A stretch of DNA of 64,000 nt from Spirochaetia bacterium (GTDB lineage Bacteria > Spirochaetota > Spirochaetia > DSM-2461). The stretch lies in the NCBI GenBank assembly GCA_963668315.1, contig OY764216.1:2880001-2944000 (forward strand), in the 5' to 3' direction. Position numbers and translations under genes: made by a program. Below the pieces are notes generated by a model. That model was not told the origin of the DNA and ran no database searches. It was given only the letters and a program-made list of their open reading frames with translations. Shown in pieces: positions 5,619 to 25,487 of the stretch. How positions within the stretch are numbered: position 1 is the first letter of the stretch; every line of letters starts with the position of its first letter.

Positions 5619-8056
5619 TGCTGAGCGATAGACGGCTGACCGCCGAAGTACGGCAGAAAATGGCGGAGGATATCGCCGATGCGGAGGGGAACGAGGTCCT
5701 CTGGTGGGGTAAACTCGACGAGGAGAGCCGTGTCTGTCAAGTGGAGGCCGCCGCCCGGGGCGATGAATCTTCCGTTCCCGCCCTCTTCCCCCATATGACC
5801 AAGGGGGATGTCATCATTCATAACCATCCTTCCGGTTTCCTCACTCCCAGTTCCGCCGATCTGGGGGTCGCTACGAATCTGGGAAACCAGGGCATCGGCT
5901 GTTTCATCGTGGATAACGAGGTCAAGCGCATCTATATCGTGGCCGAACCGGTGAAAGCCCGGGAGATACAGCCCCTGGACCGGGAGGGCGTCGGCGCCTT
6001 TCTGGAACCTGAGGGGGAGCTTTCACGCTTTCTTCCCAACTATGAGCCCCGTGAGCCGCAGATAGAGCTTCTCAAGCAGATCGTGGACGGATTCAATCTG
6101 GATAAGGTAGTGGCCGTCGAGGCGGGAACGGGCGTGGGGAAATCCTTTGCCTACCTGCTGCCCGCCATTCTCTGGGCGGAGAAAAACAAGGAACGCATCG
6201 TCGTTTCCACGGGAACGATCAATCTTCAACAGCAGCTGATGGACAAGGACATTCCCCTGGTGCAGAGGCTCCTGGGAAGCAAGGTCAAGGCGGTTCTCGT
6301 CAAGGGAAGAAGAAATTACCTCTGCCTCAAGCGTTTTTCCGAGGAGATGGAGGAGGGCTCCCTTTTCCGTGATGACAAGGATGAGATAAACTTGATCAGG
6401 GAGTGGTCCGAAACTACGGCGGACGGCTCCCTTTCCGACCTCTCCTTCAAGCCGAGCGGTGAGCTGTGGAACAAGATCAACAGCGAGGCCGATCTCTGTA
6501 CGGGAGTGCGGTGCCGCTATCATGAGCAGTGTTTCGTTATGCAGGCCCGCAGGGAAGCTTCGGCGGCGGGTATTCTTGTCGTCAACCACCATCTGCTTTT
6601 CGCCGATCTCTCCCTGCGCGTGGGGGGATTCGGCTTCGAGGCCTTTGCCGTACTGCCCCCTTTCCAGAGGGTTATCTTTGATGAGGCCCACAATATGGAG
6701 AAGAGCGCCACCAGCTTCTTTTCCCAGAGCTTCAACCGCTTCTCCTGTTCCCGCTATCTGAACAGGCTCTATAGAAAGAGCAGAAAAGGGCCGGGCGGTC
6801 TGATCCTCAAACTGGAGAAAATCACCGGTACGTCCGAGGAGTACCTCGCCGTACCGACCCTCATCGATGAAATCCTCTCCAAGTCGGTGCTGCTGGAGGA
6901 AACCACCCTGGCCATGAACCCCTTCAGGGGATCTCTCTGGATTCACGGACCGGAGTCCCAGAATATCGGTTACGGAATCCTCGAGCCCATGCTCACCCTC
7001 CAGAAGGCGATACTCGATCTGGTCGGCACGGTCTCCCGCCTGCTCAAGAAAGTCCCCGAGGACCAGGAAGAGGGGGATGTGCCCCTGGAAATCCGCAGTC
7101 TTATGACCCGCTTTGACAACATGGCCGCCTTTATGGAGGTCTTCCGCCATTACAGGGAACATTCGGAGAAGATTTTCTGGCTCCAGAAAGGACGGCTTCC
7201 CGACGGCAAGGAGTTTATCACCTATTATGTGACACCCCTGGATATCTCCCCCCTCATGTATGAAGCGGTATTCGAGCCCTTCGACAGCGTTATATGCACA
7301 TCGGCCACCCTGGCGGTAAACAGGAATTTCTCCTACTGGATGGACCGATCCGGCGCCTCCCTGGTTCCGGAGGAACGGCTGATCAGCGGGGTATACGATT
7401 CTCCCTTCAACTATCGCGACAGGGTGCTGCTGGCCATTCCGGCGGACGCTCCCCTGCCCAATAATCAGGACGCCTGGATTCAATTCTCCCTGCCCCTCAT
7501 AAAAGAGGCGGTGCTCCTCTCGGAGGGGAAGAGTCTGATTCTTTTCACAAGTTACGAAATGCTGCGCCATACCTACGAGTATCTGAAATTCGATCTCGAA
7601 TCGGCGGGGATTACCCTTTTCGCCCAGGGCGACGATGACCGGGCCCGTCTGCTTGAGCGGTTTAAAAACGAGGTAAGCAGCGTTCTCCTGGCCACCGACT
7701 CCTTCTGGGAGGGCGTGGATGTCCCCGGCGAGTCGCTCCGGCAGCTGATACTCTGCCGCCTTCCCTTCAGGGTGCCCACCGAGCCGGTCCTCATGGCCCG
7801 CGTGGAGGCTCTGGAAGCCAGGGGGGGAAACGCTTTCATGCAGATTTCCCTGCCCGAGGCCATCATGAAGTTCAAACAGGGATTCGGCAGGCTGATGAGA
7901 AGCAAGACGGACAGCGGGATCGTGCTCGTCCTGGACGGGCGTATCATCCAGAAAAATTACGGACGGTATTTCCTCTCCAGCCTTCCCGAAACGCAGAGGT
8001 CGGTAAAGCACAGCCGGGAGTTATTCATGGATATGGAGAATTTTCTGTACGAATAG
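5618..8056 (+). CDS. DinG/YoaA-family Fe-S helicase with an N-terminal JAB/RadC-like domain
   Basis: EAGTGVGKS, KGRRNYLC plus CTGVRCRYHEQC, DEAH, SATL, FWEGVDVPG, QGFGRLMR; N-terminal IIHNHPSGFLTPSSAD. Confidence 0.92.
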   Translation: MLSDRRLTAEVRQKMAEDIADAEGNEVLWWGKLDEESRVCQVEAAARGDESSVPALFPHMTKGDVIIHNHPSGFLTPSSADLGVATNLGNQGIGCFIVDNEVKRIYIVAEPVKAREIQPLDREGVGAFLEPEGELSRFLPNYEPREPQIELLKQIVDGFNLDKVVAVEAGTGVGKSFAYLLPAILWAEKNKERIVVSTGTINLQQQLMDKDIPLVQRLLGSKVKAVLVKGRRNYLCLKRFSEEMEEGSLFRDDKDEINLIREWSETTADGSLSDLSFKPSGELWNKINSEADLCTGVRCRYHEQCFVMQARREASAAGILVVNHHLLFADLSLRVGGFGFEAFAVLPPFQRVIFDEAHNMEKSATSFFSQSFNRFSCSRYLNRLYRKSRKGPGGLILKLEKITGTSEEYLAVPTLIDEILSKSVLLEETTLAMNPFRGSLWIHGPESQNIGYGILEPMLTLQKAILDLVGTVSRLLKKVPEDQEEGDVPLEIRSLMTRFDNMAAFMEVFRHYREHSEKIFWLQKGRLPDGKEFITYYVTPLDISPLMYEAVFEPFDSVICTSATLAVNRNFSYWMDRSGASLVPEERLISGVYDSPFNYRDRVLLAIPADAPLPNNQDAWIQFSLPLIKEAVLLSEGKSLILFTSYEMLRHTYEYLKFDLESAGITLFAQGDDDRARLLERFKNEVSSVLLATDSFWEGVDVPGESLRQLILCRLPFRVPTEPVLMARVEALEARGGNAFMQISLPEAIMKFKQGFGRLMRSKTDSGIVLVLDGRIIQKNYGRYFLSSLPETQRSVKHSRELFMDMENFLYE

Positions 8057-8395: not shown

Positions 8396-10435
8396 TCAGA
8401 ATTCTTCGAAATCATGGTCGTAGGTGGACTCTGTCGCGGGAATATCCGGGATAGCTTCCAGCCGGGGAACATCCTTGGCGGGAGTTTCCCGGGGCGCCTG
8501 GACGACCGATTCGCTGCGCGAGGGCCGGGCGGTTTCTCGGGCGGTTTCTCCCTTAATGCTTTTTGACGGCATTTTCCCTCCCTTATTCAGCTGAAAATAG
8601 GCGATACTGGCCTTCATCATTTCCGACTGGCTGTTCAGCTCTTCCGACATGGAAGCCAGCTCCTCCGAAGCGGAGGCGTTCTGCTGAATCACCGTATCGA
8701 GCTGCTGCAGGGCGGAGTTTATCTGCTCGGCTCCACGATACTGCTCCTCGCTGGCCGAGGTTATCTCCTGAACAAGATCGGCCGTATTCTGTATCTGGGG
8801 GACCAGCTCATTAATAATCGTACCGGCTTTTTCTGCCGCTTTGACGCTGTTCACCGAAATCTCCGTGATCTCCGCCGCGGCCTTTCCCGAGTTCTCCGCC
8901 AGCTTGCGGACTTCCGAGGCCACCACAGCGAATCCCTTTCCCGCCTCTCCGGCCCGGGCCGCTTCGATGGCCGCGTTCAAGGCCAGCATATTCGTATTCC
9001 GGGCGATCTCCTCAATGATCCCGATTCTTTCGGAAATGCTCTTCATCGCATCCACGGTCTGGTTGACCGATTCTCCGCCCAGGGCGGCGTTCTGGGCCGT
9101 CTGGCGGGATATGGCATCGGCCTTCTGGGCGTTCTCCGTATTCTGCTCAATATTGGAGGTGAGCTGTTCCATGGAGCTCGAGATCTCCTCCGTGCTGGAG
9201 GCCTGTTCGGACGCCCCGGTGGATATCTGCTGACTCGAAGCGGATATCTGGTTGGAACCGGTCGAGACCTGGGCTGCCGCGCTGTTGATATCGGTCAGAG
9301 TATTATTGAGGGATAGGACCATGTTTTTCATGGAGCAGTAGATGCCGACTTCATTTCTGTTATCAAAGTGGATGGTCAGATTGCCCCGGGCTATCTCCTC
9401 GGCGATTTCCGAAATCTCATTGGGTTCGCCGCCCAGCTTCCCGGTAAGGAGTTTCGTTATGGCTATGGCTATGATGATGCCGAAGATAACGCCGATGCCG
9501 ATTCCCGTCCAGATCACCATTGTCTGGACCATGCCCTTTCTGTCCGCCTTTGCCTGCAGAAGGGCCTGTTCCTCTTCGATAACCCCGATGCTGTTTTGGA
9601 TACCCGTAACGACCTTGTCCAGGTTGGGAAGAGTTTCGTTTCTGAATATGCCCTTGGATTCGTTCTGACCCTGCTCCAGAGCCTTCTCCATATCGATAAT
9701 CTGCTGGAAGTTTTCCTCAATAAAGGTCAGTTCCGGTGCTACCAGATTTACATAGGCGGAGTATTTATCCCCCACGGTCCTCTCTGCGTTGATGGTGGGG
9801 ACAGCTTCATGAAGGTTATCATGATGAACTATGATTTCTTTCATGAGCGATCTGTATTCCGGCCAACTCTGTTCAAGCTCCCTGTTTCTGTCGCTGTCCA
9901 GAAAACGGCCGAATCCGCAGAGGTCGGGATCGGCTTCCACCCGGCTCTGCCTGTTGTTGATGATATCAGCCAGAAGCTGCGCGGCCCAGCTGGTATGGTC
10001 GCTCAGCCTCAGGTAGAGCTCTTCCCCCAGGCCTTCGTGTGTAGCCGACCAGAGACCGTTTATTTTCTCCGCGCTGCTGTGAAGGGCCAGATGGGCCGCT
10101 TCGATCGATTTTACCGCCGCCGCGGCTTCCGGACTGTAGGAGGCGAGTTTCTCAAGCCCCCCCGAATAGTACCAAGTCCCGAAACCGCAGTCGTGTCCGT
10201 CAAGCTGTACGGAAAGTTCATTCTCATTGTTGACAAAGGTCTCTTCGAGGGACGCTTTCCATTCGTTGTGAGCCGACATGGCTGTAATAAGCTCGGAAGT
10301 CACATTGGCCAGCTCTATGACATCCCTGTTGTCCTGGAGTGTTGATGAACTGATAGTGAAAGCCACGAAACCAACTATGAATGTTATAAATGCCATTCCT
10401 AGAAAGCTGGAAAGGAGCATTGTTCTTACTTTCAT
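8396..10435 (-). CDS. Methyl-accepting chemotaxis protein with two CZB domains between TM1 and TM2
   Basis: [55 protein letters not shown] and [18 protein letters not shown]. Confidence 0.93.
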
Positions 10436-10530: not shown

Positions 10531-11238
10531 TTATTTATAGGAAAAAAAGATATCCACGTTTATGGGTACCCATTTATCTCTGTTTTTTTCCCGAAGGAGT
10601 GAAGGGCCGTGAATCTCTCTTATCAATTTTGTAGAATCATCGATGACATAGAAGACTCTGTCGATAAAAAGATTGACGATAATATTATTTGATTTCATTT
10701 CAAGAACCGTAAAGCCTTCTTTTTCGTATTCTGACCCTTCCACTTTTCTGAAATAGAAAGACGCCGTAGTGGTGAACTCCGGAACGGGAAGGGAGAAGAA
10801 AACCTTATCGCCCTGTGCCAGGTCTTCGTATCTGTCCCTTATCAGTTGCTGCTGTGTCGGTCCGAAGAGAAGATCTTCCCTGTTGTCGATAATTTTGCTT
10901 TTCTCCTCTTCCCCCCGACGGAATGTGATCTCAATCTTGTCTCCGTCCCATTCGAGCCGTGAATACTCTCCTATCTCATAAAAGACTGTGCTATGAACCC
11001 GTTTCCCCGATTCAAGGCTTTCAAGTCTCTCTTCGGCAAACAGATTCCCGTCCATGGAATAGTATTTATGGATGAAAAGGGCAGATTCCCCGTTGATAAC
11101 CGATTCGTTTTCCAGAAGGAACAGCGGTCCTTCCCCTGCCTGCCCCTGACGGAAAACCTGGGCGGTGAAGCTGTCGGTTCCCCACAGGGTGAGCGCCTGG
11201 AAAAACAGAAGGATAAAAAGCACTTCTCCTCTTTTCAT
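10531..11238 (-). CDS. Exported hypothetical protein
   Basis: Signal-peptide-like N-terminus; 6 nt downstream of the DUF1295 gene. Confidence 0.7.
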   Translation of the reverse strand: MKRGEVLFILLFFQALTLWGTDSFTAQVFRQGQAGEGPLFLLENESVINGESALFIHKYYSMDGNLFAEERLESLESGKRVHSTVFYEIGEYSRLEWDGDKIEITFRRGEEEKSKIIDNREDLLFGPTQQQLIRDRYEDLAQGDKVFFSLPVPEFTTTASFYFRKVEGSEYEKEGFTVLEMKSNNIIVNLFIDRVFYVIDDSTKLIREIHGPSLLREKNRDKWVPINVDIFFSYK

Positions 11239-11244
11239 TGGGTG

Positions 11245-12030
11245 TCACTCCTTTTTGGGAAACCAGGGAACAAAGAGACTGGTTCTCTTTTTGTATTCCG
11301 AATAGCCGGGAATGCTTCCGTATTTTTTGTCCCCGCTTTTTTCCAGAAGGGGAATTCCGGAGACGAAAAGTAAAAGGAACATAATGAATAGCGGACTGAT
11401 GACCAGCCACAGGAAGGCCGGGCCCAGGAGGGAAAGCACCATGAAAAGAATGCCCCACCAGAGGAGTGTCTCTCCGAAGTAGTTGGGATGGCGGGAGTAT
11501 TTCCAGAGGCCTGTTTCAATCCAGCCCTTGTTATCCTTTCGTGATTTGAACCGGTATTTCTGAAAATCGCTCACCGCCTCTACGAGAAATCCCGCCAGCC
11601 AGACAAACAGGCCGCACAGAAAAAGGGCATTCACTTCCGTGCTTCCCGGTGCGGAGAGGATAACGGCCATGGGCATCATCACTATCCACACCGTTACCCC
11701 CTGGAGTACCCAGAAGATCATGAAACGGAGAAAATGATCCCTTTTATCATCAAAGCGGTTGTCCTTGCCCATGCTTAGTATACGCAGGAGCAGGTAAGTC
11801 CCCAGCCTGAGGGCCCAGACTATGACGGCGGCCGAAAGAATCACCCTGGGGAGATCGGGCCGGGGATTGGCCGTATTGAGGAGAACCGTAAGGAGAATGA
11901 AGGTAAAACTATAGGTGAAATCGGTAAATTTATCCGTCCTCAGCAGATAGGCAAAGGTAAAAAAGACCGCTTGAACCGTCATGCTTATAAGCAGGGATAA
12001 AAGGATGTTGTATATATCAAAGGGAAACAT
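11245..12030 (-). CDS. DUF1295 / steroid 5-alpha-reductase-like membrane protein
   Basis: [52 protein letters not shown]. Confidence 0.9.
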
Positions 12031-12099
12031 GCTAAAGCTCCTATCAAATCTGAATGTAGTGTAAATTTAATATAATATCCTCTCTATGTCAAATAAAAC

Positions 12100-12127
12100 T
12101 TGAATAAATATAACAATATGTTATAAT
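12100..12127 (+). promoter_or_regulatory. Sigma70 promoter of the lipocalin operon with an overlapping palindromic operator
   Basis: TTGAAT 12100-05; extended -10 TGnTATAAT 12119-27; TATAAC-AATAT-GTTATA 12109-25. Confidence 0.7.
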
Positions 12128-12182
12128 TTAAAATGTGCAATTCCAGATGAATTGACTTAGAATAGAATTAAAGGAAGGACTA

Positions 12183-12731
12183 ATGAGAAAATTACTGTTT
12201 CCGATTATGATACTGATTTATCTTGCATCCTGCGTCAGTTACAAAGGGGATCAGCCTTTTCAGCCCATAGCGGAAAGGGTGGATATAAACCGCTTTCTGG
12301 GAGACTGGTTTGTCATTGCTTTGCTGCCCACTCCTATGGAAAAGAGTATTGCCAACGGTGTGGAGAACTACAGCCTCAGGGAAAACGGAGAGATTCGCGT
12401 TACCTATACATTCAGAAAGGGTAATACTTCAGGTAAGGAAAAGGTCATGTACCAGCGCGGTTGGATTGTTGATACCCATACCAATGCGGAGTGGAGGGTT
12501 AGACCGCTCTGGCCTCTGAAGCTTCCCTATTACATTCTGGAAGTGGGGAATGATTACGCCTATACGGTTATTGGGACCAATAACTACGATTATCTCTGGA
12601 TAATGTCCCGGGAGCCCGACCTGGAACCTCTTTTATTGGAGGGGATTATCCGGCGCATGGAAGAACGGGGTTATACAATGGATGATCTTGTTTATATGGA
12701 GCAGAACTGGGAGGGACGGGATGACCAATGA
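12183..12731 (+). CDS. blc: Bacterial lipocalin (Blc family) lipoprotein
   Basis: Lipobox LASC; VDINRFLGDWFVIA, WPLKLPYYIL, DYLWIMSR. Confidence 0.9.
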   Translation: MRKLLFPIMILIYLASCVSYKGDQPFQPIAERVDINRFLGDWFVIALLPTPMEKSIANGVENYSLRENGEIRVTYTFRKGNTSGKEKVMYQRGWIVDTHTNAEWRVRPLWPLKLPYYILEVGNDYAYTVIGTNNYDYLWIMSREPDLEPLLLEGIIRRMEERGYTMDDLVYMEQNWEGRDDQ

Positions 12732-14529
12732 GATAAACGGTTTTCATCTCTATCAGGCTTTTCTGGCGGGTTATTTCGAAATGAAAAAGAACAGGGAGGA
12801 AATGAACCGGATAAATGTATTCCCCGTAAGGGACGGGGATACCGGTTCGAATATGGTCGGTACCATGAAGAATGTAGCCGCGGGGCTTAAATCCTGCCGT
12901 TCCGCCGGAAAGCTTCTTGAGCGGATGGCCGAACTCTCCCTGGAGGGGGCCCGGGGCAATTCGGGTATGATCCTTACCCAGTATCTGAACGGAATGGCAC
13001 GCCACGGGAGGGGGAAGTCCACCTTGAGTCTGTGCGAACTGGCGGATATTATCAACCTTTCCGTGGAGGACGCCTATAAAGCGGTGGACATGCCGAGGGA
13101 GGGAACCATCCTTTCCGTCATGACCGCCTGGGCGGAGAAATTCCATTCCCTCTGCGCCATGCACCGTTCTCCCCAATCCCTCATGGAAGTATCACTGGAG
13201 AGAGCGCGGGAGGCTCTGGAACATACACCGGAACAGCTTGATATCCTGAAGGATAACCGGGTGGTGGATGCGGGCGCCCTTGGATTTGTCTCCTTTCTGG
13301 AAGGGGTGGATAAACTGGGTGACACGGGGCTTGTTGACGGGAGCATGCGGAAAAAGATTCTGGCCGATTCGGATCGCAGCACCCTGTCCTATGGCCTCGA
13401 AGAGGGGCACGGCGGAAGCGGTAAGTTCACCTACCGGTACTGTACAGAGGTTCTTCTGGAGAAAAGCGAGGCCGACCGTGATGAGCTGAGAGCTCTTCTC
13501 TCCCCCCTGGGAGATTCGCTGATTGTAGCTGAAGGAAGTGAAAAGTTCCGGATACATATCCATACGGATGAGCCGGATAGAGTGGTGGATACCCTGCGCC
13601 GTCTGGGGAGGGTCATACAGCAGAAAGCGGATGACATGAAAAGGCAGGAGCAAGTCGTATCGGCCCGGGCGGGAAAGATAGCCGTCTTGACCGATTCCAT
13701 AGCCGATATCCCCCGGGAACTGATGGACCGGTATCAGATCCACAGTTTAAGTCTTTCCCTGATCTGGGATGATGAGGAGTATCTGGACCGGCTTACCATC
13801 AGGCCCGGTACCTTCTATGCCATGCAGGAAGAGAGATCCTCCTTTCCGGCCAGTTCCCTGCCCTCCGCTTCCCGGGTGGAGAACTATTTCGCCTTTCTGC
13901 TCGAACACTACGAGGGTGTCATCGTCCTGTCCGTCTCCAGGGAACTGAGCGGTACCTGGAAACAGATGTCTCTGGCGGCGGAAAAATTCAACCGTCAGGA
14001 GAAGCGCATCGCCGTGGTGGACACGAGGCTGAATTCCGTCGCCCAGGGGCTGCTGGTTGAGAGGGTGGCGAGGGCATCCGTTCAGGGGGCGGGGCTGGAG
14101 GAACTGATTCTGCTGGCCGAATCCCTGAGAAAGAGAATAAAGATTTTTGTCAGCGTGAAGACCTTCCGGTATATGGTGAAAGGAGGCCGAGTCACTCCCC
14201 TGAAGGGAGCGGCGGCCAAATTACTCAACCTCAAACCTATCATCACCCTGGATGAAGAGGGAAAGGGGAAAGCCTTCGATAAATCCTTTTCCTCAGGGGG
14301 ACTGATGAAAAAGGTAACGGCTCTGGTGAGGGACATTCAGGAGGGAAAGGGGATAGAAGAGTATGCCGTAGTCCATGCTTCCGACAGGGAAAGGGGAGAG
14401 ACTTTTTCCCGTCTTGTCAGGGAGGTAATCGGAAAGGAGCCATCCTATATCTCGGAAATATCCCCCATTGTGGGGATGCATTCCGGTAAAGGGGCGGTGG
14501 CCATAGGAATTGTCGAACGTGAGGAGTGA
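12721..14529 (+). CDS. DAK2 (FakA-like) plus DegV (FakB-like) fusion, putative fatty acid kinase
   Basis: INVFPVRDGDTGSNM, GARGNSG, EGTILSV, VVDAG, YCTE..HIHT; then DegV TDS, SSLP, LSGT, GGR, HSG. Confidence 0.88.
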   Translation: MTNEINGFHLYQAFLAGYFEMKKNREEMNRINVFPVRDGDTGSNMVGTMKNVAAGLKSCRSAGKLLERMAELSLEGARGNSGMILTQYLNGMARHGRGKSTLSLCELADIINLSVEDAYKAVDMPREGTILSVMTAWAEKFHSLCAMHRSPQSLMEVSLERAREALEHTPEQLDILKDNRVVDAGALGFVSFLEGVDKLGDTGLVDGSMRKKILADSDRSTLSYGLEEGHGGSGKFTYRYCTEVLLEKSEADRDELRALLSPLGDSLIVAEGSEKFRIHIHTDEPDRVVDTLRRLGRVIQQKADDMKRQEQVVSARAGKIAVLTDSIADIPRELMDRYQIHSLSLSLIWDDEEYLDRLTIRPGTFYAMQEERSSFPASSLPSASRVENYFAFLLEHYEGVIVLSVSRELSGTWKQMSLAAEKFNRQEKRIAVVDTRLNSVAQGLLVERVARASVQGAGLEELILLAESLRKRIKIFVSVKTFRYMVKGGRVTPLKGAAAKLLNLKPIITLDEEGKGKAFDKSFSSGGLMKKVTALVRDIQEGKGIEEYAVVHASDRERGETFSRLVREVIGKEPSYISEISPIVGMHSGKGAVAIGIVEREE

Positions 14530-14530
14530 T

Positions 14531-15955
14531 ATGGACCGGGAGAGAGTCTTCTCCCTCAACCGGATTGCCGAGGAGGGCCCGGGGGATATTTACTATTGGA
14601 TGACCCGTGAGCAGCGGCTTGAGGACAACTGGGCCCTGAATTATGCCTGCCGCTGGGCGGATCTGAAAAAACGCTCCCTGAAAATCCTGTTTTTCCTGCC
14701 CCCCCGGCGGGAGGGATTCGCCGTGAAGTCCTACGATTTCATGGTTAGGGGACTGGTAAGATTGAAAGAGGAAGCCCTTCAGAAGGGATTTACCCTGTAT
14801 ATACTGCATCGTTGTGATCCGGAAGATCTCTTCAGGGAGAGGGCCGGAAGGGGAATGCTGGGAGGACTGGTCTGTGATTTCTATCCTCTGAAGGAATTCC
14901 GCGAGAAGAGGGAGAGGATCGCAGGGATATTGGATATCCCCGTACGGGAAGTGGACGGGCACAATATTGTCCCCTGCCGTTATCTATCGGATAAGCAGGA
15001 GTTCGCCGCCTATACGATCAGAAATAAAATCGCCCCCCTCCTGACGGGGTTTCTGAAAGAGATCCCCCCTCCGCAGTTTCCGGGATCTGCTGTTGCCCGG
15101 TCAGCCGATGAGGGAATGGAGACCTACTCTCCCTTCATTATGAGAACGGAGAATCTGGAGAGGCTGATTTCTTCCAAACCGATATATCCGGGCGAACCGG
15201 GCTACGGGGGAGGAATGGAGAGGCTCTACCATTTTCTGCAAAAGAAGTGGGACCTTTACGGAACGGAGCGGAATAATCCGGTAAAAGAGGCTCTTTCCGG
15301 GCTCTCCCCCTATCTTCATTTCGGTCAGATCTCCCCGCAGACCGCCGCCTTCGAGGCTGCCCGTCTGGGAGGGATCACCACGCTGAAAGGCGGCTTTCTT
15401 GACGAGATAATCGTCAGGAGGGAGCTGAGTGACAACTTCTGTTTTCATAACGCCCGCTATGACAGGGAGGAGGGATTTCCCGACTGGGCCCGGCAGACCT
15501 TGGCCAAGCATGAAGGCGATCCCAGGCCTTATCTATACAATCTCGAAGAACTGGAAGAAGGGGTCACCCATGATGATCTCTGGAACGCGGCCCAAAAGCA
15601 GATGGTTGATACGGGGAAGATGCACGGCTATATGCGTATGTACTGGGCTAAGAAAATACTGGAATGGAGCCCTTCGGCGGGAACCGCCATGGAACGGGCC
15701 GTCTATCTTAATGATAAATACTCCCTTGACGGGGAGGACCCCAACGGCTATGCCGGCTGCGCCTGGGCCATCGGGGGGCTTCATGACAGGGCCTGGCAGG
15801 AGCGGCCCGTTTTCGGGAAAATCCGCTATATGAATGAGGCGGGATGCCGGAGGAAGTTTCCGGTGAAAGACTATATAAGGGAGAATCTGGGTCATGGAAA
15901 AGAAGATACGCATAGGTATAAGCAGCTGTCTCTTGGGGAATCGGGTGCGCTATGA
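14531..15955 (+). CDS. phrB: Class II CPD DNA photolyase
   Basis: YWMTREQRLEDNWAL, VDGHNIVP, LSPYLHFGQIS, RRELSDNF, GKMHGYMRMYWAKKILEW, HDRAW, FGKIRYMN. Confidence 0.95.
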   Translation: MDRERVFSLNRIAEEGPGDIYYWMTREQRLEDNWALNYACRWADLKKRSLKILFFLPPRREGFAVKSYDFMVRGLVRLKEEALQKGFTLYILHRCDPEDLFRERAGRGMLGGLVCDFYPLKEFREKRERIAGILDIPVREVDGHNIVPCRYLSDKQEFAAYTIRNKIAPLLTGFLKEIPPPQFPGSAVARSADEGMETYSPFIMRTENLERLISSKPIYPGEPGYGGGMERLYHFLQKKWDLYGTERNNPVKEALSGLSPYLHFGQISPQTAAFEAARLGGITTLKGGFLDEIIVRRELSDNFCFHNARYDREEGFPDWARQTLAKHEGDPRPYLYNLEELEEGVTHDDLWNAAQKQMVDTGKMHGYMRMYWAKKILEWSPSAGTAMERAVYLNDKYSLDGEDPNGYAGCAWAIGGLHDRAWQERPVFGKIRYMNEAGCRRKFPVKDYIRENLGHGKEDTHRYKQLSLGESGAL

Positions 15956-16844
15956 CGGGCAGCACAAAAAAGATCCCTTTCTGACGGACGTTCTGGGGCA
16001 ATGGTGTGAATTCGTACCGGTCTGCCCCGAGGTGGAGTGCGGCCTGTCCATTCCCCGTGAGGCAATGCGTCTCGTAGGCAGCAGGGAGAAGCCGAGGCTG
16101 GTCACCTGGAAGAGCGGCGTCGATCATACGGAACGAATGGAGACGTGGTGCCGTGAGAAATGTGAATCCCTGGCTTCTGAGGATTTGGCAGCCTTTATCT
16201 TCAAGACGAAGAGTCCCTCAAGCGGATTGGGCCGGGTCAAGGTCTATAACGGGAAAGGAGACGTCATCCATAGGGACGGCCAGGGAATCTTCGCCCGGAT
16301 ATTTACAGAGACATTCCCCGATCTTCCCGTGGAGGACGAGGGGAGGCTGAACGATCCGGGCATAAGGGAGAACTTTGTGGAGACCCTCTTTGTTCTCCAG
16401 CGCTGGCGGGAGGCTCTGGCTGAGGGCACGGCCGGGGCGGTGGTGGAGTTTCACAGCCGCCATAAGTACACCTTTATGGCAAGAAATCAGAAAATCCTCA
16501 GGCAGATGGGACCGGTCATGTCCAATCTGGGGTGGGATAATTTCGCAAAGGCGAAGGAGAGCTATTACCGACTGCTTCTGGAAATCCTAAAAAGTGAAAA
16601 GGACAGAAAAAACAACTATAATGTTCTGCTCCATATGGCAGGATACTTCCGGGAGAATCTGGATCCGGAGGAGAGAAAAGAGCTGGGGCGGATTATAGAG
16701 GATTACGGCAAGGGATGGCTTCCCCTGCTTGTTCCCCTGACTCTCATCAGGCATTTCAGCCGTAAGTACGGGAGGGAGTATCTGATGGGGCAGCATTTCC
16801 TCAATCCCCATCCTCTGGAGATGAAGCTGCTCTATCCGGTTTGA
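15894..16844 (+). CDS. DUF523 (TudS-like) plus DUF1722 (YbgA) protein
   Basis: GISSCLLGNRVRYDG, VCPEVECG, KSPSSG, EDEGRLND, FHSRHKY, NVLLHMAGYF. Confidence 0.92.
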   Translation: MEKKIRIGISSCLLGNRVRYDGQHKKDPFLTDVLGQWCEFVPVCPEVECGLSIPREAMRLVGSREKPRLVTWKSGVDHTERMETWCREKCESLASEDLAAFIFKTKSPSSGLGRVKVYNGKGDVIHRDGQGIFARIFTETFPDLPVEDEGRLNDPGIRENFVETLFVLQRWREALAEGTAGAVVEFHSRHKYTFMARNQKILRQMGPVMSNLGWDNFAKAKESYYRLLLEILKSEKDRKNNYNVLLHMAGYFRENLDPEERKELGRIIEDYGKGWLPLLVPLTLIRHFSRKYGREYLMGQHFLNPHPLEMKLLYPV

Positions 16845-17460
16845 CCCTTTTCCATGTCTTCTCCTCCCCCCTGATTATCCGGCGGATATTGGAGCGGTGC
16901 AAGAAAAGGATGAGGAGGAAAAGGAGAGAGAGAAAAAATTCGGTCAGAAGAAAATCCTCCCGGGAGGTTATCAGATGGGCAGTAAGGTAGTAGAGAGGCA
17001 GAGTCATTCCGGCAAGGAGAGAGCCTAATGACGCGTAGCCGCTTATCAGGACTGCCAGAAGAAAGGCCGCGAGGCAGAAAGGGACCGCTCCGGGGATAAG
17101 GGCGCTGATTCCACCGGCCGTGACGGCCACACCCTTTCCTCCCTTAAATCGGGTCCAGGGGGGGAAGGAGTGTCCCAGCATGAGAAATATGATCATGACA
17201 AGAGTAAGGAGACGGGGCTCGTTCCAGCGGACGGCGGTCAGGATAGGAAGAAAACCTTTGGCAAAATCAAGGAGAAGCACAGCCCCGCCGGGCAGCTTTC
17301 CGAAATTCCGGTAGACGTTCGTCGCTCCTCCGTTTCCGCTTCCCAGGGTGTAGATGTTTTTTCCGAAGAAAATTTTCACCACGAGGAAAGCCGAAGGGAG
17401 TGAGCCGCACAGGAAGGACGCGGCCGGTAAAATCGTATAGGACAGGAATTCGGGAAACAT
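16801..17460 (-). CDS. plsY: Acyl-phosphate:glycerol-3-phosphate acyltransferase
   Basis: GSGNGGATNVYR, LLDFAKG, LGHSFP, FKGGKGVA, HRSNIRRI. Confidence 0.93.
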   Translation of the reverse strand: MFPEFLSYTILPAASFLCGSLPSAFLVVKIFFGKNIYTLGSGNGGATNVYRNFGKLPGGAVLLLDFAKGFLPILTAVRWNEPRLLTLVMIIFLMLGHSFPPWTRFKGGKGVAVTAGGISALIPGAVPFCLAAFLLAVLISGYASLGSLLAGMTLPLYYLTAHLITSREDFLLTEFFLSLLFLLILFLHRSNIRRIIRGEEKTWKRVKPDRAASSPEDGD

Positions 17461-17554
17461 GGCGAACCTCCGTTTGTATCAGTATAGCCCATGAACGGCT
17501 AAGGGGCGAGAATTCTTTCTTATCTCCTTGGCTGAGAACTTATGAAACTTTTTA

Positions 17555-17584
17555 TTGACGAGGAATATAACAAAGAGTTATATT
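17555..17584 (+). promoter_or_regulatory. Promoter of the regulator gene with a second copy of the operator palindrome
   Basis: TTGACG 17555-60; TATATT 17579-84; ATATAAC-AAAGA-GTTATAT 17565-83. Confidence 0.7.
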
Positions 17585-17590
17585 TTATTT

Positions 17591-18463
17591 GTGGATAGAA
17601 AACAGTTCGGAGAGAAAATCCGTTATTTTCGAAAGCAGAAGGGGCTGACACAGGGACAGCTTGCCGAGATGATCGGCGTTTCCCAGGTGACGATTGCCCA
17701 TTATGAGAGGGGAAACAGGTTTCCCAAGGGGACAAAACTGGCCCTGCTGGCATCGGTTCTGAATGTGTCAGTCGATTCCCTGATGGGCCTTGAGGTAAAG
17801 GAAGAGGCGGAAAGCCAGGGCCTTTATTCCATTGATGAGCTGATAGAGCTCCTCCACTCCGATTCGATGGAACGAAGCTGGGTTTACCTGAGACACTGGC
17901 AGCTGTCGAGGAAATACGACAGCATGGGGGTTTTCCGGGATATTCTCATTCCCCTCCTTGAGCGGGTGGGCGACCTCTGGCAGGAGAAAAAGATATACAT
18001 CTCCCAGGAGCATATCATTACCGATAAGGTCAAGCTGCTTATAGACAGGCTGGTAAGGGAGGAGATGGAGGAAAAGCATATTCTTCCCGACAGGGAGAGA
18101 AAATGGATGGGACTGTGTGCTCCCGGTGAGCAGCATGAGCTTGTGCTTTTCATGATAAGCCAGCTTATGAGACTGAGCGGCTGGGATGTCAATTATCTGG
18201 GAAAGGATATACCGCTGAACGATTTGAAGAAGATGGTCAGGCGTTACAAACCGGATATCCTGGTTTTTTCCATTACCATGAAAAACCATGGTAAGATACT
18301 GAAAGAGTATCTGGAGGGACTGTCGGTGTTCTTGAAGAGGTCACGCATTATTGTAGGGGGACGAGGCTGGATCGGCGGTACCGGAGAAGGACCTTCTGCC
18401 GAGGCGGAATATGTCGATAGCCTGGATCAATACTTTTCTCTGATAGGGGAAGGAAAGAAATAG
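17591..18463 (+). CDS. XRE-HTH plus cobalamin-binding (CarH/LitR-like) transcriptional regulator
   Basis: XRE HTH (LTQGQLAEMIGVSQVTIAHYERGNRFP); W-x9-EH (WQEKKIYISQEH); GEQHEL, GWDVNYLG, SIT, VGG; GTG start inferred. Confidence 0.88.
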   Translation: MDRKQFGEKIRYFRKQKGLTQGQLAEMIGVSQVTIAHYERGNRFPKGTKLALLASVLNVSVDSLMGLEVKEEAESQGLYSIDELIELLHSDSMERSWVYLRHWQLSRKYDSMGVFRDILIPLLERVGDLWQEKKIYISQEHIITDKVKLLIDRLVREEMEEKHILPDRERKWMGLCAPGEQHELVLFMISQLMRLSGWDVNYLGKDIPLNDLKKMVRRYKPDILVFSITMKNHGKILKEYLEGLSVFLKRSRIIVGGRGWIGGTGEGPSAEAEYVDSLDQYFSLIGEGKK

Positions 18464-18472
18464 GAGTTTATT

Positions 18473-19567
18473 ATGAATCTACCGGGGAAGTTGTACATAC
18501 CAATAGTATGTGTCTTGCTGACGGGAATGTTTGTTTCCTGCGGGGAGGAGTCCGACCAGGTGACCAGCGCCAGTTATCACGGGGACGGTACAGAAGAACC
18601 CCGGCCGGTGGAAGCCGTAGAGCTTCATAGGGATAAGCTGATAAAGCGGGTTAGCGGATCGGGTATCATCCGGGGACGTGACGAGGTGTGGAGTACCTCG
18701 GAGACCCAGGGGACGATTGTGGAAGTCTATGTCTCCCCGGGCGATTATGTCAGCAAAGGGGATCCCCTTATTAAAGTGGAGGACAACCTGGCTTACTGGG
18801 AGATGAAAAGGGCGGAACAGCAGTTTAAAACCTCCGATTTCGAGTACCGGGGCAAAAAGAACTCCTTTGAGAACGGCGCCGTATCGGAAATCGAATACAA
18901 CCGGTCCTATGCTTCCTGGTTTTCCAGCCGGGCCGCCTATGAAACCGCTCTGCAGGCCTATGAAAACTGCACTCTCCGTGCTCCTATCTCCGGCCATGTC
19001 TCCCAGATGGATACGACGCTGACGGCGGGGAACATTCTGAACCGGGGGACTCCGGTCATGAAGATCATCAATACCGATGAGTTTCTCCTCAATATAGCCC
19101 TGGGACAGAGGGAAGTCGGCCTGGTCACCCTGGATTCTCCTGTCGCTGTCACTATTGAGCTGGCGGATACGGTTCTGCGGGCCGAAGGAAGGGTTCTGGA
19201 CATCTCCACCGGAAGCGACGGGGAAACGGGCAGTTTTCCCTTAAGGGTCGTCTGGAAAAACGAGTGGGACAGCCTGGTCAGACCGGGAATGACCGCCCGG
19301 GTGGAACTGCAGGCCGAAAGGGGGGAGGAAGGCATAATCATCCCCTATGACAGCATTCTGGAGAGGGACGGTAAGAAATGGGTTTTCGTCGCCCTTGCGG
19401 AAGATAATGGGGTAAAAGCCTATCCCCGGGAGATACAGCCGGGCAGCAGGCTGGGAAACAGGATACGCATTGATGAAGGCCTGGAAGAGGGGGAATCCCT
19501 TATCATTTCGGCTCTGACGACCCTCTACCCGGGGGCTCCCGTTGAGCTGAGCTACCTGAACGAGTAG
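18473..19567 (+). CDS. RND efflux periplasmic adaptor (MFP) lipoprotein
   Basis: Lipobox FVSC; VSPGDYVSKGDPL, LRAPISG, RPGMTARV, GLEEGE. Confidence 0.92.
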   Translation: MNLPGKLYIPIVCVLLTGMFVSCGEESDQVTSASYHGDGTEEPRPVEAVELHRDKLIKRVSGSGIIRGRDEVWSTSETQGTIVEVYVSPGDYVSKGDPLIKVEDNLAYWEMKRAEQQFKTSDFEYRGKKNSFENGAVSEIEYNRSYASWFSSRAAYETALQAYENCTLRAPISGHVSQMDTTLTAGNILNRGTPVMKIINTDEFLLNIALGQREVGLVTLDSPVAVTIELADTVLRAEGRVLDISTGSDGETGSFPLRVVWKNEWDSLVRPGMTARVELQAERGEEGIIIPYDSILERDGKKWVFVALAEDNGVKAYPREIQPGSRLGNRIRIDEGLEEGESLIISALTTLYPGAPVELSYLNE

Positions 19568-19576
19568 GACACGCAT

Positions 19577-22500
19577 ATGAGTATCTCAAAGTTTTCCGTA
19601 AATAATCAGGTTTTTCTGAATATATTGATGATCGCCCTTCTGGTGTTCGGATTTTTTTCCGCCGGCAGGATGCCCCGCGAGCAGTATGATGAGGTTCCCT
19701 TCTATTTCGTGAACATCACCGTTCCCTATCCGGGGGCGGGCGCGGAGGATGTGGAAAGGCAGGTCACCATACCCATAGAAAATGAAATGCAGTCCCTCGA
19801 TGAACTTAAGGAGGTCTCCTCCCTGTCGTCGGAGGGGCTCTCCTTTGTTCAGATTCAGTTTGACGACGGGATTTCGGCGGCGAAATTCGATAAGCTTTTC
19901 AGCGATGTGAGAACGGCTTTTTCCAAGGCTTCCCTGCCCGACGGCGTCCAGGAGGAACTTATCGATGACTTCTCCTCCACCGATTTCATTCCCGTGGCGG
20001 AAGTCGTTCTTTCCGGTGATGTGGACTACGCCCGGCTCATCCGTACGGCGGAGCAGATGGAATCGGATATCAGAGCGATTCCCGATGTCTCCGGTGTCGA
20101 GATAGTCGGAGCCCGGGATAAGCAGATTGCCGTTGAACTGGACAAAGCGGCGGCGGAAGCGCGGGGCATTACTCTGGAAGAGGTCGCCCGGGCCATCCGG
20201 GGGGCCAATATGACCGTTCCCGGGGGAACCTTCGTCACCGATGAGGGGGAGTATCTTATCAGGACGACAGGAAGCATTGAGGGAATAGAATCGCTCGGGG
20301 ATATTATCGTGAGAAGGGGCAACGGGAACGGCGGCATCCTGCGGGTGGATCAGGTGGCCCGAGTGAAGGAGCGGTTTGATCCGGAGGGGACAAAGGCCCG
20401 CTTCAATGGAAAGACATCCCTTGTCCTGCGTATTACCAAAGTGCCCGGCGGGGACGGGGTGGGTATCATCGACGGGGTTAAATCCCTCATGGACGAGTAC
20501 CGGGAACAGACCGGCCGCCAGATATCCATCACCCTGGTCAACGATTCCACCATACAGATACGAAACAGTTTGAATGTCCTTCGCAATAATGTCCTCATAG
20601 GGCTGCTTCTTCTCGTGGGAATCCTCTTTCTATTCGTGGGAATCAGAAACAGTCTGATGACGGCTCTGGGTATCCCGGTTACCTTTGCGGCTACCTTCAT
20701 CGTGCTGGAAATCTTCGGGGAGACATTCAATACCAATACACTTTTCGGCCTGGTTTTAGTCCTGGGACTCGTGGTGGATCACGCCATCGTCATTATAGAA
20801 AACGGCTACCGCATGCAGGAGCTGGGACTCAGCCCAAGGGAGGCGGCCGTGAAGGGGACCTCCCAGGTGGCCGTACCGGTTATCGCCGCCACGGCTACGA
20901 CGGTCGCCGCCTTTCTTCCCCTTATGATACTGCCCGGGACAATAGGTAAATTCCTGCGGGTCATTCCTTTTACCGTTTCCATCGCCCTCCTGCTCTCAAC
21001 CGGGGAAGCCCTGCTGTTTATTCCCGCCCATTTCGCCCACTGGCCGGGAAACCGGAAAAGGAGGAATGATTCGGTTCGGTGGATCAGGTTCCGGGACTTT
21101 TTCGGCCGGATTCTCGAAAAACTGTACGGGAAAAAAGGGCTGACCGTATCTATCATTCTGCTGCTTATGGTGCTGAGTTTTACCCTCGTCCCCCTCCTGG
21201 AAACAGATCTGTTTTCCGCCGAGGACTATACGGTTTTTTATATCGATGTGGAGATGGCCCCCGGAACGACGCAGGAGAGAACGGAACAGGTCCTGAGCCG
21301 CTTTGAAGAGAGACTCCTTCCCCTGGTGGGGAACGGGGAGATTACCTCCCTTTCCCTCTCAATAGGATTTCTCGGCAGCGACAGCGGCAGCCGCGTCAGA
21401 AATAATGTGGGTCAGCTGACCGTGGACCTGGCGGAACGGGAGGAGGGGAGAACCCGTTCCATTACGGATATCATGGAGGATGTCCGGACTCTTACGGGGG
21501 ATATCCCCGGGCCGGAGTATGTGGAATACCGGAAGGCGACAAACGGTCCCCCCTCCGATGCCCCGGTGGCCTTCCGTCTCTTCGGAAACAGCCGGGAGGA
21601 ACTGGTGCAGGCTTCTGAGAGACTCCAGGAGGAGCTGAGAACATTTCCCGAACTGTTCAGTATCCGCGATGATTACGAACCGGGTACGCCGGAACTGCAG
21701 ATCACCGTGGACAAGGAGCGGGCCGCTTCATACGGTATGACGCCCCTCACGGTCGGTTTAGCCGTTCAGGAGGCTCTGGAGGGCTACGGGGCCGGTTCCT
21801 ACTTTAAGGACAACGAAGAGATCGATGTGGTGGTATATTACGAAGGGGCCGGTTCGGGAGCCCTGGAAGATCTTCTCCAGCTCTATCTCATTACCCCGCG
21901 GGGTGACAGGATCCCCTTTTCGGCTCTCTGCCGGATAGAGCCGAAATCATCCCCTTCGGCCATAAGCCGTGTCGACGGGAAAAGACAGATTCAGGTAACG
22001 AGCGAAGCCTATGACACGGAGAACCTGCCTGTCATCGACCGGGCCGTACAGCGGGTCTTCGACGAGGAGATCGCCCCCCGGTTTCCCGATGTGACGCTGA
22101 AGCTGGGGGGAGAGTTCTCCGAATTCGGCGACCTTCTCATTCAGATACTGCGTATCTTCCTTATCGGGATTTTTCTCATCTACATCATTCTGGCATCCCA
22201 GTTCAACTCCTATACCCAGCCTCTTATCATCCTCTTTTCCGTACCGCTGGCCTTCATGGGGGTCATTCTGTTCCTGGTCCTTTCGGGAAATCCCTTTTCC
22301 ACCACCGTTATCTACGCAGGGGTGGCCCTGGCCGGCATTGCCGTGAACGATTCCATTGTACTTATAAGCTTCATCAATGAGGAGAGAAGCGAGGGCAGGG
22401 GGATTTCCGAATCTGTGAAGGAGGCGGTTCTGACAAGGCTGAGGCCCATTCTTCTCACTTCCCTGACGACGATTGGGGGGCTCCTTCCCACGGCGGTAGG

Positions 22501-22672
22501 CCTGGGGGGCAAGTCCGTTGTCTGGGGCCCCATGGCGGGTACCATCGTCTTCGGACTCCTCTTTTCGACTCTTACGGCCCTGCTTTTCATTCCCTGCCTC
22601 TACGGGTTTCTTTATGACAGGAAGAAAGGGGCTGGAGCGGCCCTTTCTGATGGGGGAGAAGATAAACGCTGA
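19577..22672 (+). CDS. AcrB-family RND transporter
   Basis: 1031 aa; YPGAGAEDVE, GLVVDHAIVIIEN, RLRPILLT, QFNSY. Confidence 0.95.
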   Translation: MSISKFSVNNQVFLNILMIALLVFGFFSAGRMPREQYDEVPFYFVNITVPYPGAGAEDVERQVTIPIENEMQSLDELKEVSSLSSEGLSFVQIQFDDGISAAKFDKLFSDVRTAFSKASLPDGVQEELIDDFSSTDFIPVAEVVLSGDVDYARLIRTAEQMESDIRAIPDVSGVEIVGARDKQIAVELDKAAAEARGITLEEVARAIRGANMTVPGGTFVTDEGEYLIRTTGSIEGIESLGDIIVRRGNGNGGILRVDQVARVKERFDPEGTKARFNGKTSLVLRITKVPGGDGVGIIDGVKSLMDEYREQTGRQISITLVNDSTIQIRNSLNVLRNNVLIGLLLLVGILFLFVGIRNSLMTALGIPVTFAATFIVLEIFGETFNTNTLFGLVLVLGLVVDHAIVIIENGYRMQELGLSPREAAVKGTSQVAVPVIAATATTVAAFLPLMILPGTIGKFLRVIPFTVSIALLLSTGEALLFIPAHFAHWPGNRKRRNDSVRWIRFRDFFGRILEKLYGKKGLTVSIILLLMVLSFTLVPLLETDLFSAEDYTVFYIDVEMAPGTTQERTEQVLSRFEERLLPLVGNGEITSLSLSIGFLGSDSGSRVRNNVGQLTVDLAEREEGRTRSITDIMEDVRTLTGDIPGPEYVEYRKATNGPPSDAPVAFRLFGNSREELVQASERLQEELRTFPELFSIRDDYEPGTPELQITVDKERAASYGMTPLTVGLAVQEALEGYGAGSYFKDNEEIDVVVYYEGAGSGALEDLLQLYLITPRGDRIPFSALCRIEPKSSPSAISRVDGKRQIQVTSEAYDTENLPVIDRAVQRVFDEEIAPRFPDVTLKLGGEFSEFGDLLIQILRIFLIGIFLIYIILASQFNSYTQPLIILFSVPLAFMGVILFLVLSGNPFSTTVIYAGVALAGIAVNDSIVLISFINEERSEGRGISESVKEAVLTRLRPILLTSLTTIGGLLPTAVGLGGKSVVWGPMAGTIVFGLLFSTLTALLFIPCLYGFLYDRKKGAGAALSDGGEDKR

Positions 22673-24706: not shown

Positions 24707-25351
24707 TTAAAGTAGTTCTTCCCCCCGGGATTGGAGGGCCTTTTTTTCGGCCTGATTAACCATGAAGAAAAGATTTTCAATTTCTAGACCGATATTCACA
24801 TTATGGATACGGCAGCCCTCTTTGCTCTTCAGTTGAAGGGGGGCGAAATTCAGTATTCCCTTTATGCCGCAGTTCACCATCATCTCCATGGTCTGCATGG
24901 CGGCAGAGTAGGGTACGGCTATGATTCCCACATCAATATGATGTTCGAGAACGTAGGGTTTGAGAATCTCCAGGGGGTAAAGGGGAATATTATTCATTTC
25001 TGCCTGGGGCGGATTAATATCAAAACCGGCGGCGATACGGAAGCCTTCCCTTATATAATCATGATTGATAAGGGCCTTACCCAGATTTCCGCATCCCACG
25101 ATGACGATCTCCTGGAGGCCCGAATCCCCGAGGAGGTGGTTCAGTTTGTCCAGCACACGGTTGATGCTGTAACCTCCTCTTCTGTTTCCCTCAATCTTGA
25201 AATGGGAGAAATCCTTCCTGACAAGGGCGGCGGAAATCTCAAGAGCGTCCCCCAGGTTATTTGAATAGACCCTGTCCAGGCCGAGTGATTTAAACTGAAG
25301 AAGTATCCTTTTGTACTTCATAAGCCGAAGCATCAGGTCCTTTTGTTCCAT
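24707..25351 (-). CDS. rex: Redox-sensing (NADH/NAD+) repressor Rex
   Basis: RLMKYKR, VRKDFSHF, GGY, VGCGNLGKAL, GILNFAP. Confidence 0.93.
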   Translation of the reverse strand: MEQKDLMLRLMKYKRILLQFKSLGLDRVYSNNLGDALEISAALVRKDFSHFKIEGNRRGGYSINRVLDKLNHLLGDSGLQEIVIVGCGNLGKALINHDYIREGFRIAAGFDINPPQAEMNNIPLYPLEILKPYVLEHHIDVGIIAVPYSAAMQTMEMMVNCGIKGILNFAPLQLKSKEGCRIHNVNIGLEIENLFFMVNQAEKKALQSRGEELL

Positions 25352-25374
25352 CAGATGATATCCTTATTTTAATA

Positions 25375-25392: not shown

Positions 25393-25487
25393 TAAAAGGC
25401 AAATAATATCAATAAGTTGTAATTTAATGTAAGTAACAACTAAGTATATTAGGTATAAAGTTGACCTATGTAATTTTGGCTGTTTTG

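Follow-up and report, generated by a model that had tools for sequence, protein, structure and literature searches.

A predicted XRE-type, cobalamin-dependent light-responsive repressor and its candidate palindromic operator at a spirochaete photorepair and fatty-acid salvage locus

We analysed a 64,000-nucleotide stretch of DNA from a Spirochaetia bacterium (the window; assembly GCA_963668315.1, contig OY764216.1, positions 2,880,001 to 2,944,000), in which a block of ten genes at 10531 to 22672 includes a regulator of 290 amino acids (aa) that joins an XRE helix-turn-helix to a CarH-type cobalamin-binding photosensor domain (17591 to 18463, + strand; HTH_3, B12-binding_2 and B12-binding). 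To judge from its sequence and that of its surroundings, this protein is probably an adenosylcobalamin (AdoCbl)-dependent, light-responsive repressor of photorepair and fatty-acid salvage, acting through the palindrome TATAAC-N5-GTTATA. We are confident that the regulator would bind this site, and by analogy with known cobalamin photoreceptors there are good grounds to expect that light would release it. In the proposed mechanism, the XRE domains would bind the palindrome in the dark, with the AdoCbl-loaded protein as the repressing form; cofactor-dependent oligomerisation would pair two XRE domains on the two-fold site, and light, possibly together with oxygen, would free the DNA. The photolyase, a FakA-FakB fusion, a lipocalin and an RND pump would then be induced, joined in relatives by PlsY, PlsC and DUF1295, and these proteins would re-acylate membrane lipids from free fatty acids, replacing photo-oxidised lipid, with the lipocalin and pump handling damaged or surplus hydrophobic molecules. 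Whether lipid replacement would be the purpose of the induced genes is an even call.

A shared predicted operator

The palindrome has exactly two copies in the 5,624,497-base, 97%-complete host genome that was searched, at 12109 and 17566; versions with spacers of 3, 4, 6 and 7 nucleotides (nt) have 0, 2, 1 and 1 scattered copies elsewhere in the genome. Both copies overlie the -10 box of a predicted sigma70 promoter, those of the lipocalin-FakAB-photolyase-DUF523 operon and of the regulator operon. Predicted operator 1 (12109 to 12125, TATAAC-AATAT-GTTATA) covers the spacer and -10 box of the lipocalin promoter (12100 to 12127, + strand; TTGAAT-16-TATAAT, extended -10), and predicted operator 2 (17566 to 17582, TATAAC-AAAGA-GTTATA) lies 25 nt before the regulator start, within a promoter (17555 to 17584, + strand; TTGACG-18-TATATT) whose -10 box is followed by the start codon after 6 nt. 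The regulator mRNA is likely leaderless, as the spacing from operator and promoter to start codon is fixed in orthologs. One shared predicted operator would tie the regulator-MFP-RND unit to the lipocalin-FakAB-photolyase-DUF523 unit.

For a genome scan, a matrix for this near-type site was trained on 13 ortholog sites and the 17566 site, with the 12109 site held out. Across the genome, the held-out site had the top score (20.1), followed by 17566 (17.4). Block-shuffled genomes gave one or two matches of at least 17 and none of at least 20, and three or four of at least 15 compared with four in the real genome; matches below 17 are therefore at chance level and are not evidence. Among them is a sequence resembling the operator (15.3), some 80 nt upstream of metE, which encodes the B12-independent methionine synthase (genome position 4620825); metE was rejected as a regulon member, as this score is at chance level and the regions before all seven other metE genes reach 6.6 at most. 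The interval 12031 to 12100 holds no second operator (best score -3.5), and the predicted sigma70 promoter of the leftward DUF1295 operon (12064 to 12092, - strand; TTGACA-17-TAAATT) is not overlapped by operator 1. No extra regulon members emerged from the orthologs of two genes adjoining the regulator in relatives, a beta-barrel gene and a peroxiredoxin gene, neither of which has a site in this genome. The first, an unannotated gene for a predicted outer-membrane beta-barrel (ESM Atlas 0.99; L044:13388-14197), belongs to operator-led units in five relatives (G005, G010, G014, G018 and G022); its ortholog here, at genome positions 1925306 to 1926142, is unlinked to the block.

A search of 61 genomes found full-length regulator orthologs (E<1e-47) in 14 relatives, all of the same family. 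A matching 17-mer lies 25 to 27 nt before the start codon in 13 of them, in many cases accompanied near -65 by a weaker copy that faces the divergent operon, and the site of the fourteenth, held out from training, scored 16.2, so that all 14 close orthologs are preceded by a site. The operator also precedes the lipocalin gene in G002. Three lipid modules that are unlinked from the regulator keep the site as well (3/3; G010, 15.5; G005, 14.4; G006, 15.4; 0/200 shuffles for each), and the module promoters of nine genomes in which no full-length XRE-B12 protein was found reach best scores of only -5.5 to 5.9. In one of these nine, G012, a B12 regulator of MerR type immediately precedes the lipid module (L172:7200-12695). 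Since the relatives are kin and not independent, these counts are patterns rather than p-values. In G026 and G034 (L034 and L035), a MerR-B12 gene, with a fasciclin gene, and an XRE-B12 gene share one locus.

The palindrome might instead be a mere AT-rich -10 region beside genes that are neighbours by chance, and its right half does overlap a TATAAT-like box; the shuffled genomes, too, yield their one or two matches of at least 17. We consider this highly improbable: among 199 GTTATA hexamers in AT-rich context, these two sites alone (four strand counts) carry the exact left half, the C at position 6 and the G at position 12 are 95-98% constant, the module promoters of the nine genomes above lack the site, and a distant class of regulators reads TAACAC or TATCAC half-sites at variable distance from the start codon.

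Nor is the linkage of the block genes a matter of chance, as the gene order from lipocalin to RND is kept in two of three congeneric genomes (one contig begins inside DAK2-DegV) and parts of the block adjoin the regulator in all 14 close orthologs. Within these 14 loci (20 kb or the whole contig), DAK2-DegV occurs in 10, plsY in 10, DUF1295 in 8, MFP-RND in 6, DUF523-DUF1722 in 4, plsC after plsY in 3 and photolyase in 2. The commonest layout has exported protein-DUF1295-plsY(-plsC) divergent from regulator-lipocalin-DAK2-DegV, and close orthologs of the RND transporter (50-80%) flank regulators of both operator classes. The conserved core is the lipid module and the RND pump, and photolyase is genus-specific. 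The sequence-only reading that preceded this work had linked the regulator to acyl-phosphate genes and an RND pump, and the 14 neighbourhoods bear this out; its inclusion of photolyase holds here, where the gene sits in an operator-led operon, but as a genus-level addition, with class II photolyase in 2 of 22 family genomes.

The regulator and its wider family

An identical 290-aa protein is present in the protein collection (P0004), in agreement with the corrected GTG start at 17591. Domain calls here and below are from Pfam and NCBIfam profile searches of the window proteins. Residues 1 to 65 form an XRE/Cro helix-turn-helix (HTH_3, 5e-16) with sequence matches to P22 c2, SinR and 434; the Pfam search gave no MerR domain match, and the protein scores 63 bits against the 400-bit cut-off of the CarH family NF052513. 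Residues ~80 to 290 form a CarH-type cobalamin domain, whose best sequence matches are TtCarH and CtMerR (E 4e-11). The AlphaFold2 (AF2) model (pLDDT 91) has a four-helix bundle and a Rossmann B12 domain, and TtCarH is its best Foldseek match (E 2e-13; TM 0.8 to the isolated domain). The validated B12 photoreceptor signature of GxxW, EH, GxxH and GxxxP (PMC11796333) is complete, as G127/W130, E140/H141 (within Wx9EH), G179/H182 and G204/P208. In the family alignment, the Trp, the Glu and both His are kept in 65 of 66 rows, and 40 of the 66 have the full set of eight signature residues.

Photolysis of adenosylcobalamin changes CarH-type domains, and from its sequence the regulator is likely to share this photochemistry. 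The earlier assignment as a B12-photoreceptor-type regulator is upheld by the complete signature and the fold match. Its likeness to CarH/LitR stands for the cobalamin sensor; the XRE domain, which implies a different mode of DNA binding, had been overlooked. The protein is CarH-like in its predicted sensing and falls outside CarH on its DNA-binding domain and operator type. For the cofactor, the genome encodes a CobA adenosyltransferase, outside any cob/btu operon; no PduO-type adenosyltransferase was found in it, and its one cobalamin riboswitch match is sub-threshold (30.4 bits; cut-off 31.5). A homodimer prediction scored 0.14 against a mark of 0.42 and is counted neither for nor against the proposal.

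In a class-wide search, 49 of 401 genomes held 53 full-length matches, counting rows that begin no later than profile position 9. A genome scan found 135 relatives of the regulator, of which 80 were kept, in hosts named as Spirochaetota and anaerobic Bacillota; cultured carriers include Clostridium amylolyticum (L106) and Thermohalobacter berrensis (L097). In the predicted recognition helix, most of the relatives carry Thr or Ser in place of Val33. In this distant class, a variant palindrome, TA(A/T)CAC-N5-GTG(T/A)TA, was found in 35 of 43 training regions; of 19 fasciclin-led operons kept out of the training, 17 have it upstream. At position 3 of the half-site, G is seen in 0 of 18 half-sites of the Val class and in 69 of 106 of the Thr/Ser class, with a site obtained from 62 of 75 loci, and this covariation with helix residue 33 links the XRE domain to the site. 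Variant sites precede uvdE-DUF523/1722 (L112), DAK2-DegV-DUF1295-DUF523/1722 (L116), regulator-photolyase units (L073 and L075) and crtI-like genes (L083 and L214), and in L041 a pyrimidine-dimer glycosylase is the last gene of the operon. As a control, 281 upstream regions at a distance of over 3 kb from a regulator were scored, and 4 reach 13: those of a heliorhodopsin, of a crtI-like gene (so called from its BLAST label alone) and its divergent neighbour, and of one unrelated gene. In many family loci no light gene lies close by (Pfam on 117 of ~170 neighbour representatives). Four further Val-class regulators (L051, L053, L055 and L057), with nearly the same recognition helix as that of the window, have a weak upstream palindrome or none and are followed by an unannotated gene for a protein of 300-320 aa. 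G005 also encodes a 389-aa cobalamin-domain protein in which no DNA-binding domain is recognised and whose gene is divergent from those for CIA30 and DUF523-1722 (L183:5742-8830); similar proteins of 360-410 aa occur across the class.

Lipid, repair and efflux genes

Open reading frame and domain checks returned the ten genes at the positions and strands first reported, together with the two divergent intergenic regions (12031 to 12182 and 17461 to 17590). In the first predicted operon, the genes for a Blc-type lipocalin with a lipoprotein-like signal, LASC (12183 to 12731, + strand; PF08212, Lipocalin_2, 1e-30; NF007786 below cut-off), the DAK2-DegV fusion (12721 to 14529, + strand, from a corrected ATG at 12721), a class II cyclobutane pyrimidine dimer photolyase (14531 to 15955, + strand, from a corrected ATG at 14531) and a RudS-like DUF523-DUF1722 protein (15894 to 16844, + strand; Pfam and alignment) overlap or abut. 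The second predicted operon comprises the regulator, an RND periplasmic adaptor (MFP; 18473 to 19567, + strand; TIGR01730 over cut-off) and an AcrB-family RND transporter (19577 to 22672, + strand; PF00873, 2e-188), with 9 nt between genes. Divergent from the regulator is PlsY, an acyl-phosphate:glycerol-3-phosphate acyltransferase (16801 to 17460, - strand; TIGR00023 over cut-off), and leftward of operator 1 run a DUF1295 membrane protein of the steroid-reductase/ICMT clan (11245 to 12030, - strand; PF06966, 1e-63) and a beta-rich exported protein of 235 aa (10531 to 11238, - strand).

The fusion resembles a single-chain fatty acid kinase, with FakA N and L domains and DegV/FakB (Dak2, FakA-like_M and DegV). 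It keeps the FakA nucleotide (Dak2) motifs and Cys241/His279/His281, which match the catalytic residues Cys240/His282/His284 of Staphylococcus aureus FakA (PMC9136124). Its C terminus is DegV (3e-65) rather than FakA-like_C (5e-6), and it falls below the YloV and FakA cut-offs. The fusion and plsY are each single-copy in the genome. PlsY carries all three cytoplasmic motifs of its family. Fak makes acyl-phosphate, from which PlsY makes lysophosphatidic acid, the precursor from which PlsC makes phosphatidic acid; by this analogy, the module is predicted to turn free fatty acid into acyl-phosphate and then lysophosphatidic acid. A housekeeping role for plsY and FakAB was rejected: plsY was not found in 32 of the 61 genomes, including the 96%-complete congener G001, in which neither the fusion nor the regulator was found. 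The lipid module is thus accessory. In G032, the DAK2-DegV fusion lies in four fragments (L050:1267-2907), through frameshifts or assembly errors.

The light regulon could be real and the lipid genes still serve another end, with FakAB, PlsY and DUF1295 making or modifying a specific protective lipid or detoxifying free fatty acids, and the exported protein, lipocalin and RND pump moving lipid to the envelope. DUF1295, the fusion's most constant partner, has no place in textbook Fak-PlsY salvage; PlsX was not found in the genome (FabF is present), so that PlsC would need another acyl donor; and known LitR regulons switch on the synthesis of furan fatty acids (PMC9758184). This alternative is nevertheless unlikely, though worth keeping in view, as the catalytic residues of FakA and FakB type and the PlsY motifs are all kept, and plsC follows plsY in 3 of the 14 ortholog loci, fitting ordinary phosphatidic acid synthesis.

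DUF1295's constancy comes from a metagenome survey of the fusion, which covered 80 of 579 loci (Pfam was run on 76 neighbour proteins, and 36 loci are shorter than 8 kb): 41 contain DUF1295 and 9 contain DUF2177. A clear light gene is present in at least 6 (L254, L281, L285, L287, L293 and L297), and the fusion-DUF1295 pair is therefore widespread, with a visible link to light in some cases only.

The exported protein has no Pfam match. Its AF2 model (pLDDT 89.7) is an open beta-sheet with ESM Atlas neighbours that include DUF3108-labelled clusters, and its weak Foldseek matches are to DUF1849 (EipB-like; 6NTR, E 7e-5, TM 0.42) and LolA (LolA/RseB-like; E 1.4e-3, TM 0.27). In relatives it is the first gene of an exported-DUF1295-plsY(-plsC) operon, and a lipid-carrier role, suggested by the modelled fold, is a lead.

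The photolyase scores 510 bits with TIGR00591 (6e-153), slightly below the cut-off of 550, and matches class II structures (2XRY-type) over its full length (E 4e-118). Its neighbour keeps Cys12, Cys44, Glu46, Arg55, Ser107 and Ser109 of RudS, a TudS-DUF1722 fusion beside photolyase in which Cys, Glu, Arg and two Ser residues have been tested (PMC11417400). Position 110, however, is Ser, in contrast to the Cys of each of the six tested enzymes (Cys12, Cys44 and Cys110 in RudS_ST), and SPSSG replaces SPSCG in 11 of 14 spirochaete DUF523-DUF1722 sequences among those listed, a conserved two-cysteine variant. The tRNA protection that had been ascribed to this gene is accordingly unproven, with Ser110 in place of a cluster-binding Cys; desulfidase activity is nonetheless possible on sequence grounds, because ThiI is present in the genome and the two-cysteine mutant RudS_TT C47A stayed active (PMC11417400).

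Light or cobalamin state as the signal, and known systems

Several observations weigh against the proposed light-responsive repressor and its regulon. The block had been read as one regulon, and the shared operator agrees with this for two units; plsY and the DUF1295/exported-protein operon have no operator of their own in this genome by matrix scan, and their genes are operator-preceded in relatives only. Nine genomes have the lipid module but no operator before it, a strong site precedes unlinked DUF523-1722 genes in just one genome of ten, and in G006, where the only regulator found is of the distant type, the sites are near-type. Good sites are missing from 8 of 43 distant-class and 4 of 13 Val-class upstream regions, and the covariation of residue 33 with the half-site is probably one evolutionary event. 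In the metagenome survey, plsY lies beside the fusion in 2 of 80 loci, and a clear light gene shows in only 6 of 80, as a lower bound. Finally, His132 of TtCarH is Gln131 in the regulator, with His in 0 of 77 family proteins that have the motif, and Arg176 of TtCarH is not conserved in the family; the output step may therefore differ from that of TtCarH, in which His132 is reported to be needed for light-driven break-up of the tetramer and oxygen also for dissociation (PMC10442372).

The same repressor and operator might instead answer a dark signal from cobalamin state (AdoCbl supply, oxidation or nitric oxide damage), as a B12/redox sensor for lipid and envelope repair. The missing His132, the hosts named as anaerobic Spirochaetota and Bacillota, a TtCarH switch that completes only with oxygen (PMC10442372), the site-like sequence before metE, and the peroxiredoxin, MsrA/B, glutathione peroxidase and TspO genes that recur near the regulator or lipid module would all fit such a sensor. 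We regard it as improbable: two domains that lack His132, CtMerR and SasPcob (with Gln), have shown photoactivity in vitro (PMC11796333), the site before metE scores no better than chance in this genome and has no counterpart above 6.6 in the seven other metE regions, and operator-preceded photolyase, UvdE, pyrimidine-dimer glycosylase, crtI-like and heliorhodopsin genes fit mainly light. A combined possibility, which we offer tentatively and rate below an even chance, is that a widespread, uncharacterised class of B12 photoreceptors in anaerobic Spirochaetota and Bacillota, with an XRE domain and a short palindrome, is a light-and-oxygen AND gate whose main spirochaete job is to induce a dedicated single-chain Fak/PlsY/PlsC/DUF1295 lipid-repair line. 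If so, it would be a carotenoid-free defence against photo-oxidation and would give a function to the unexplained DegV-DUF1295-DUF2177 genes beside heliorhodopsins.

Under the preferred reading of an AdoCbl-dependent light-responsive repressor, the system resembles class I CarH/LitR (TtCarH, PDB 5C8D/5C8E; CtMerR, PDB 8JBS) in its four-helix bundle and Rossmann domain, Wx9EH and ExH, and resembles CarH as a predicted autoregulated repressor over a sigmaA promoter with photolyase and DUF523-1722 among its targets (PMC8156234 and PMC11417400). It differs in the XRE/Cro domain that replaces the MerR winged helix, in the missing His132, and in a single 17-bp palindrome, whereas CarH operators are three or four tandem 11-bp direct repeats bound by MerR domains (PMC8156234; direct repeats were not searched for separately here). 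It differs further in its core targets, lipid and efflux genes, its anaerobic hosts and a genome without carotenoid genes; the 97%-complete genome yielded no phytoene synthase (PF00494) and no cyclopropane synthase (PF02353, E<=1e-10), as expected of the variant without carotenoid or cyclopropane-fatty-acid synthase genes first described. Pseudomonas LitR regulons (class II/III, PplR/PmlR; phrB, ufaM, folE and RudS) likewise combine, in a non-phototroph, light-induced photolyase and RudS with a fatty-acid function, here a predicted one; their regulators are MerR-type without B12 binding, and on the lipid side they produce furan fatty acids rather than using Fak-PlsY (PMC9758184 and PMC11417400). 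The fusion shares with Staphylococcus and Streptococcus FakA/FakB-PlsY the kinase and linker domains, the catalytic Cys-His-His, DegV and a PlsY partner (PMC9136124); unlike those systems, it is one polypeptide in which DegV/FakB replaces FakA_C, accessory in a diderm in which PlsX was not found, and under predicted photoreceptor control. With RudS 4-thiouridine desulfidase the DUF523-DUF1722 protein has in common the fusion, photolyase neighbour and residues, save the Ser for the third cluster cysteine (PMC11417400).

DegV or Dak2-DegV with DUF2177 and DUF1295 has been reported beside heliorhodopsin, with membrane lipid remodelling proposed (bioRxiv 10.1101/2021.02.16.431466). Compared with that neighbourhood, the link here is transcriptional, through a B12 sensor and predicted operator, and adds PlsY, PlsC, lipocalin and the RND pump; locus L285 has XRE-B12, operator, DUF2177, DAK2-DegV and DUF1295 in one unit, and no heliorhodopsin was found in the present genome. 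The earlier reading knew of no description of this combination of genes, which holds for the literature searched, except that this preprint anticipates the DegV/DUF1295 association and lipid remodelling. The full-text literature, whose coverage leaves out most subscription papers, gave no description of the XRE-B12 regulator, its palindrome or a B12-controlled Fak-PlsY module; PMC11796333 mentions unspecified 'HTH' fusions and has a 1561-sequence network, and the XRE-B12 architecture is already present in automatic annotations.

Should the proposal hold, obligate-anaerobe lineages would join the range of B12 photoregulation, and neither the DNA-binding domain nor the geometry of the operator would be that of CarH. 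With the predicted operator, the regulon could be read in any genome, and the system would allow the idea that DegV/DUF1295 genes next to photoreceptors serve light-dependent membrane remodelling to be tested directly. For optogenetics, a compact repressor released by green light, with a single 17-bp site and a specificity that one residue can switch, would make a simple part.

The names of homologs place the host among Spirochaetales. Within the window, an [FeFe]-hydrogenase operon (NuoE-like, HATPase, ferredoxin, NuoF-like and large subunit genes) is divergent from a Rex repressor at 24707 to 30664. No RNA families were found inside the block; a thiamine pyrophosphate (TPP) riboswitch lies at 39651 to 39748 (- strand; 66.8 bits). 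A DinG-type helicase with an N-terminal RadC-like JAB domain is encoded at 5618 to 8056, and directly downstream of the exported-protein gene is a chemoreceptor with two CZB zinc-binding domains (8396 to 10435, - strand), which is not kept beside the module in relatives.

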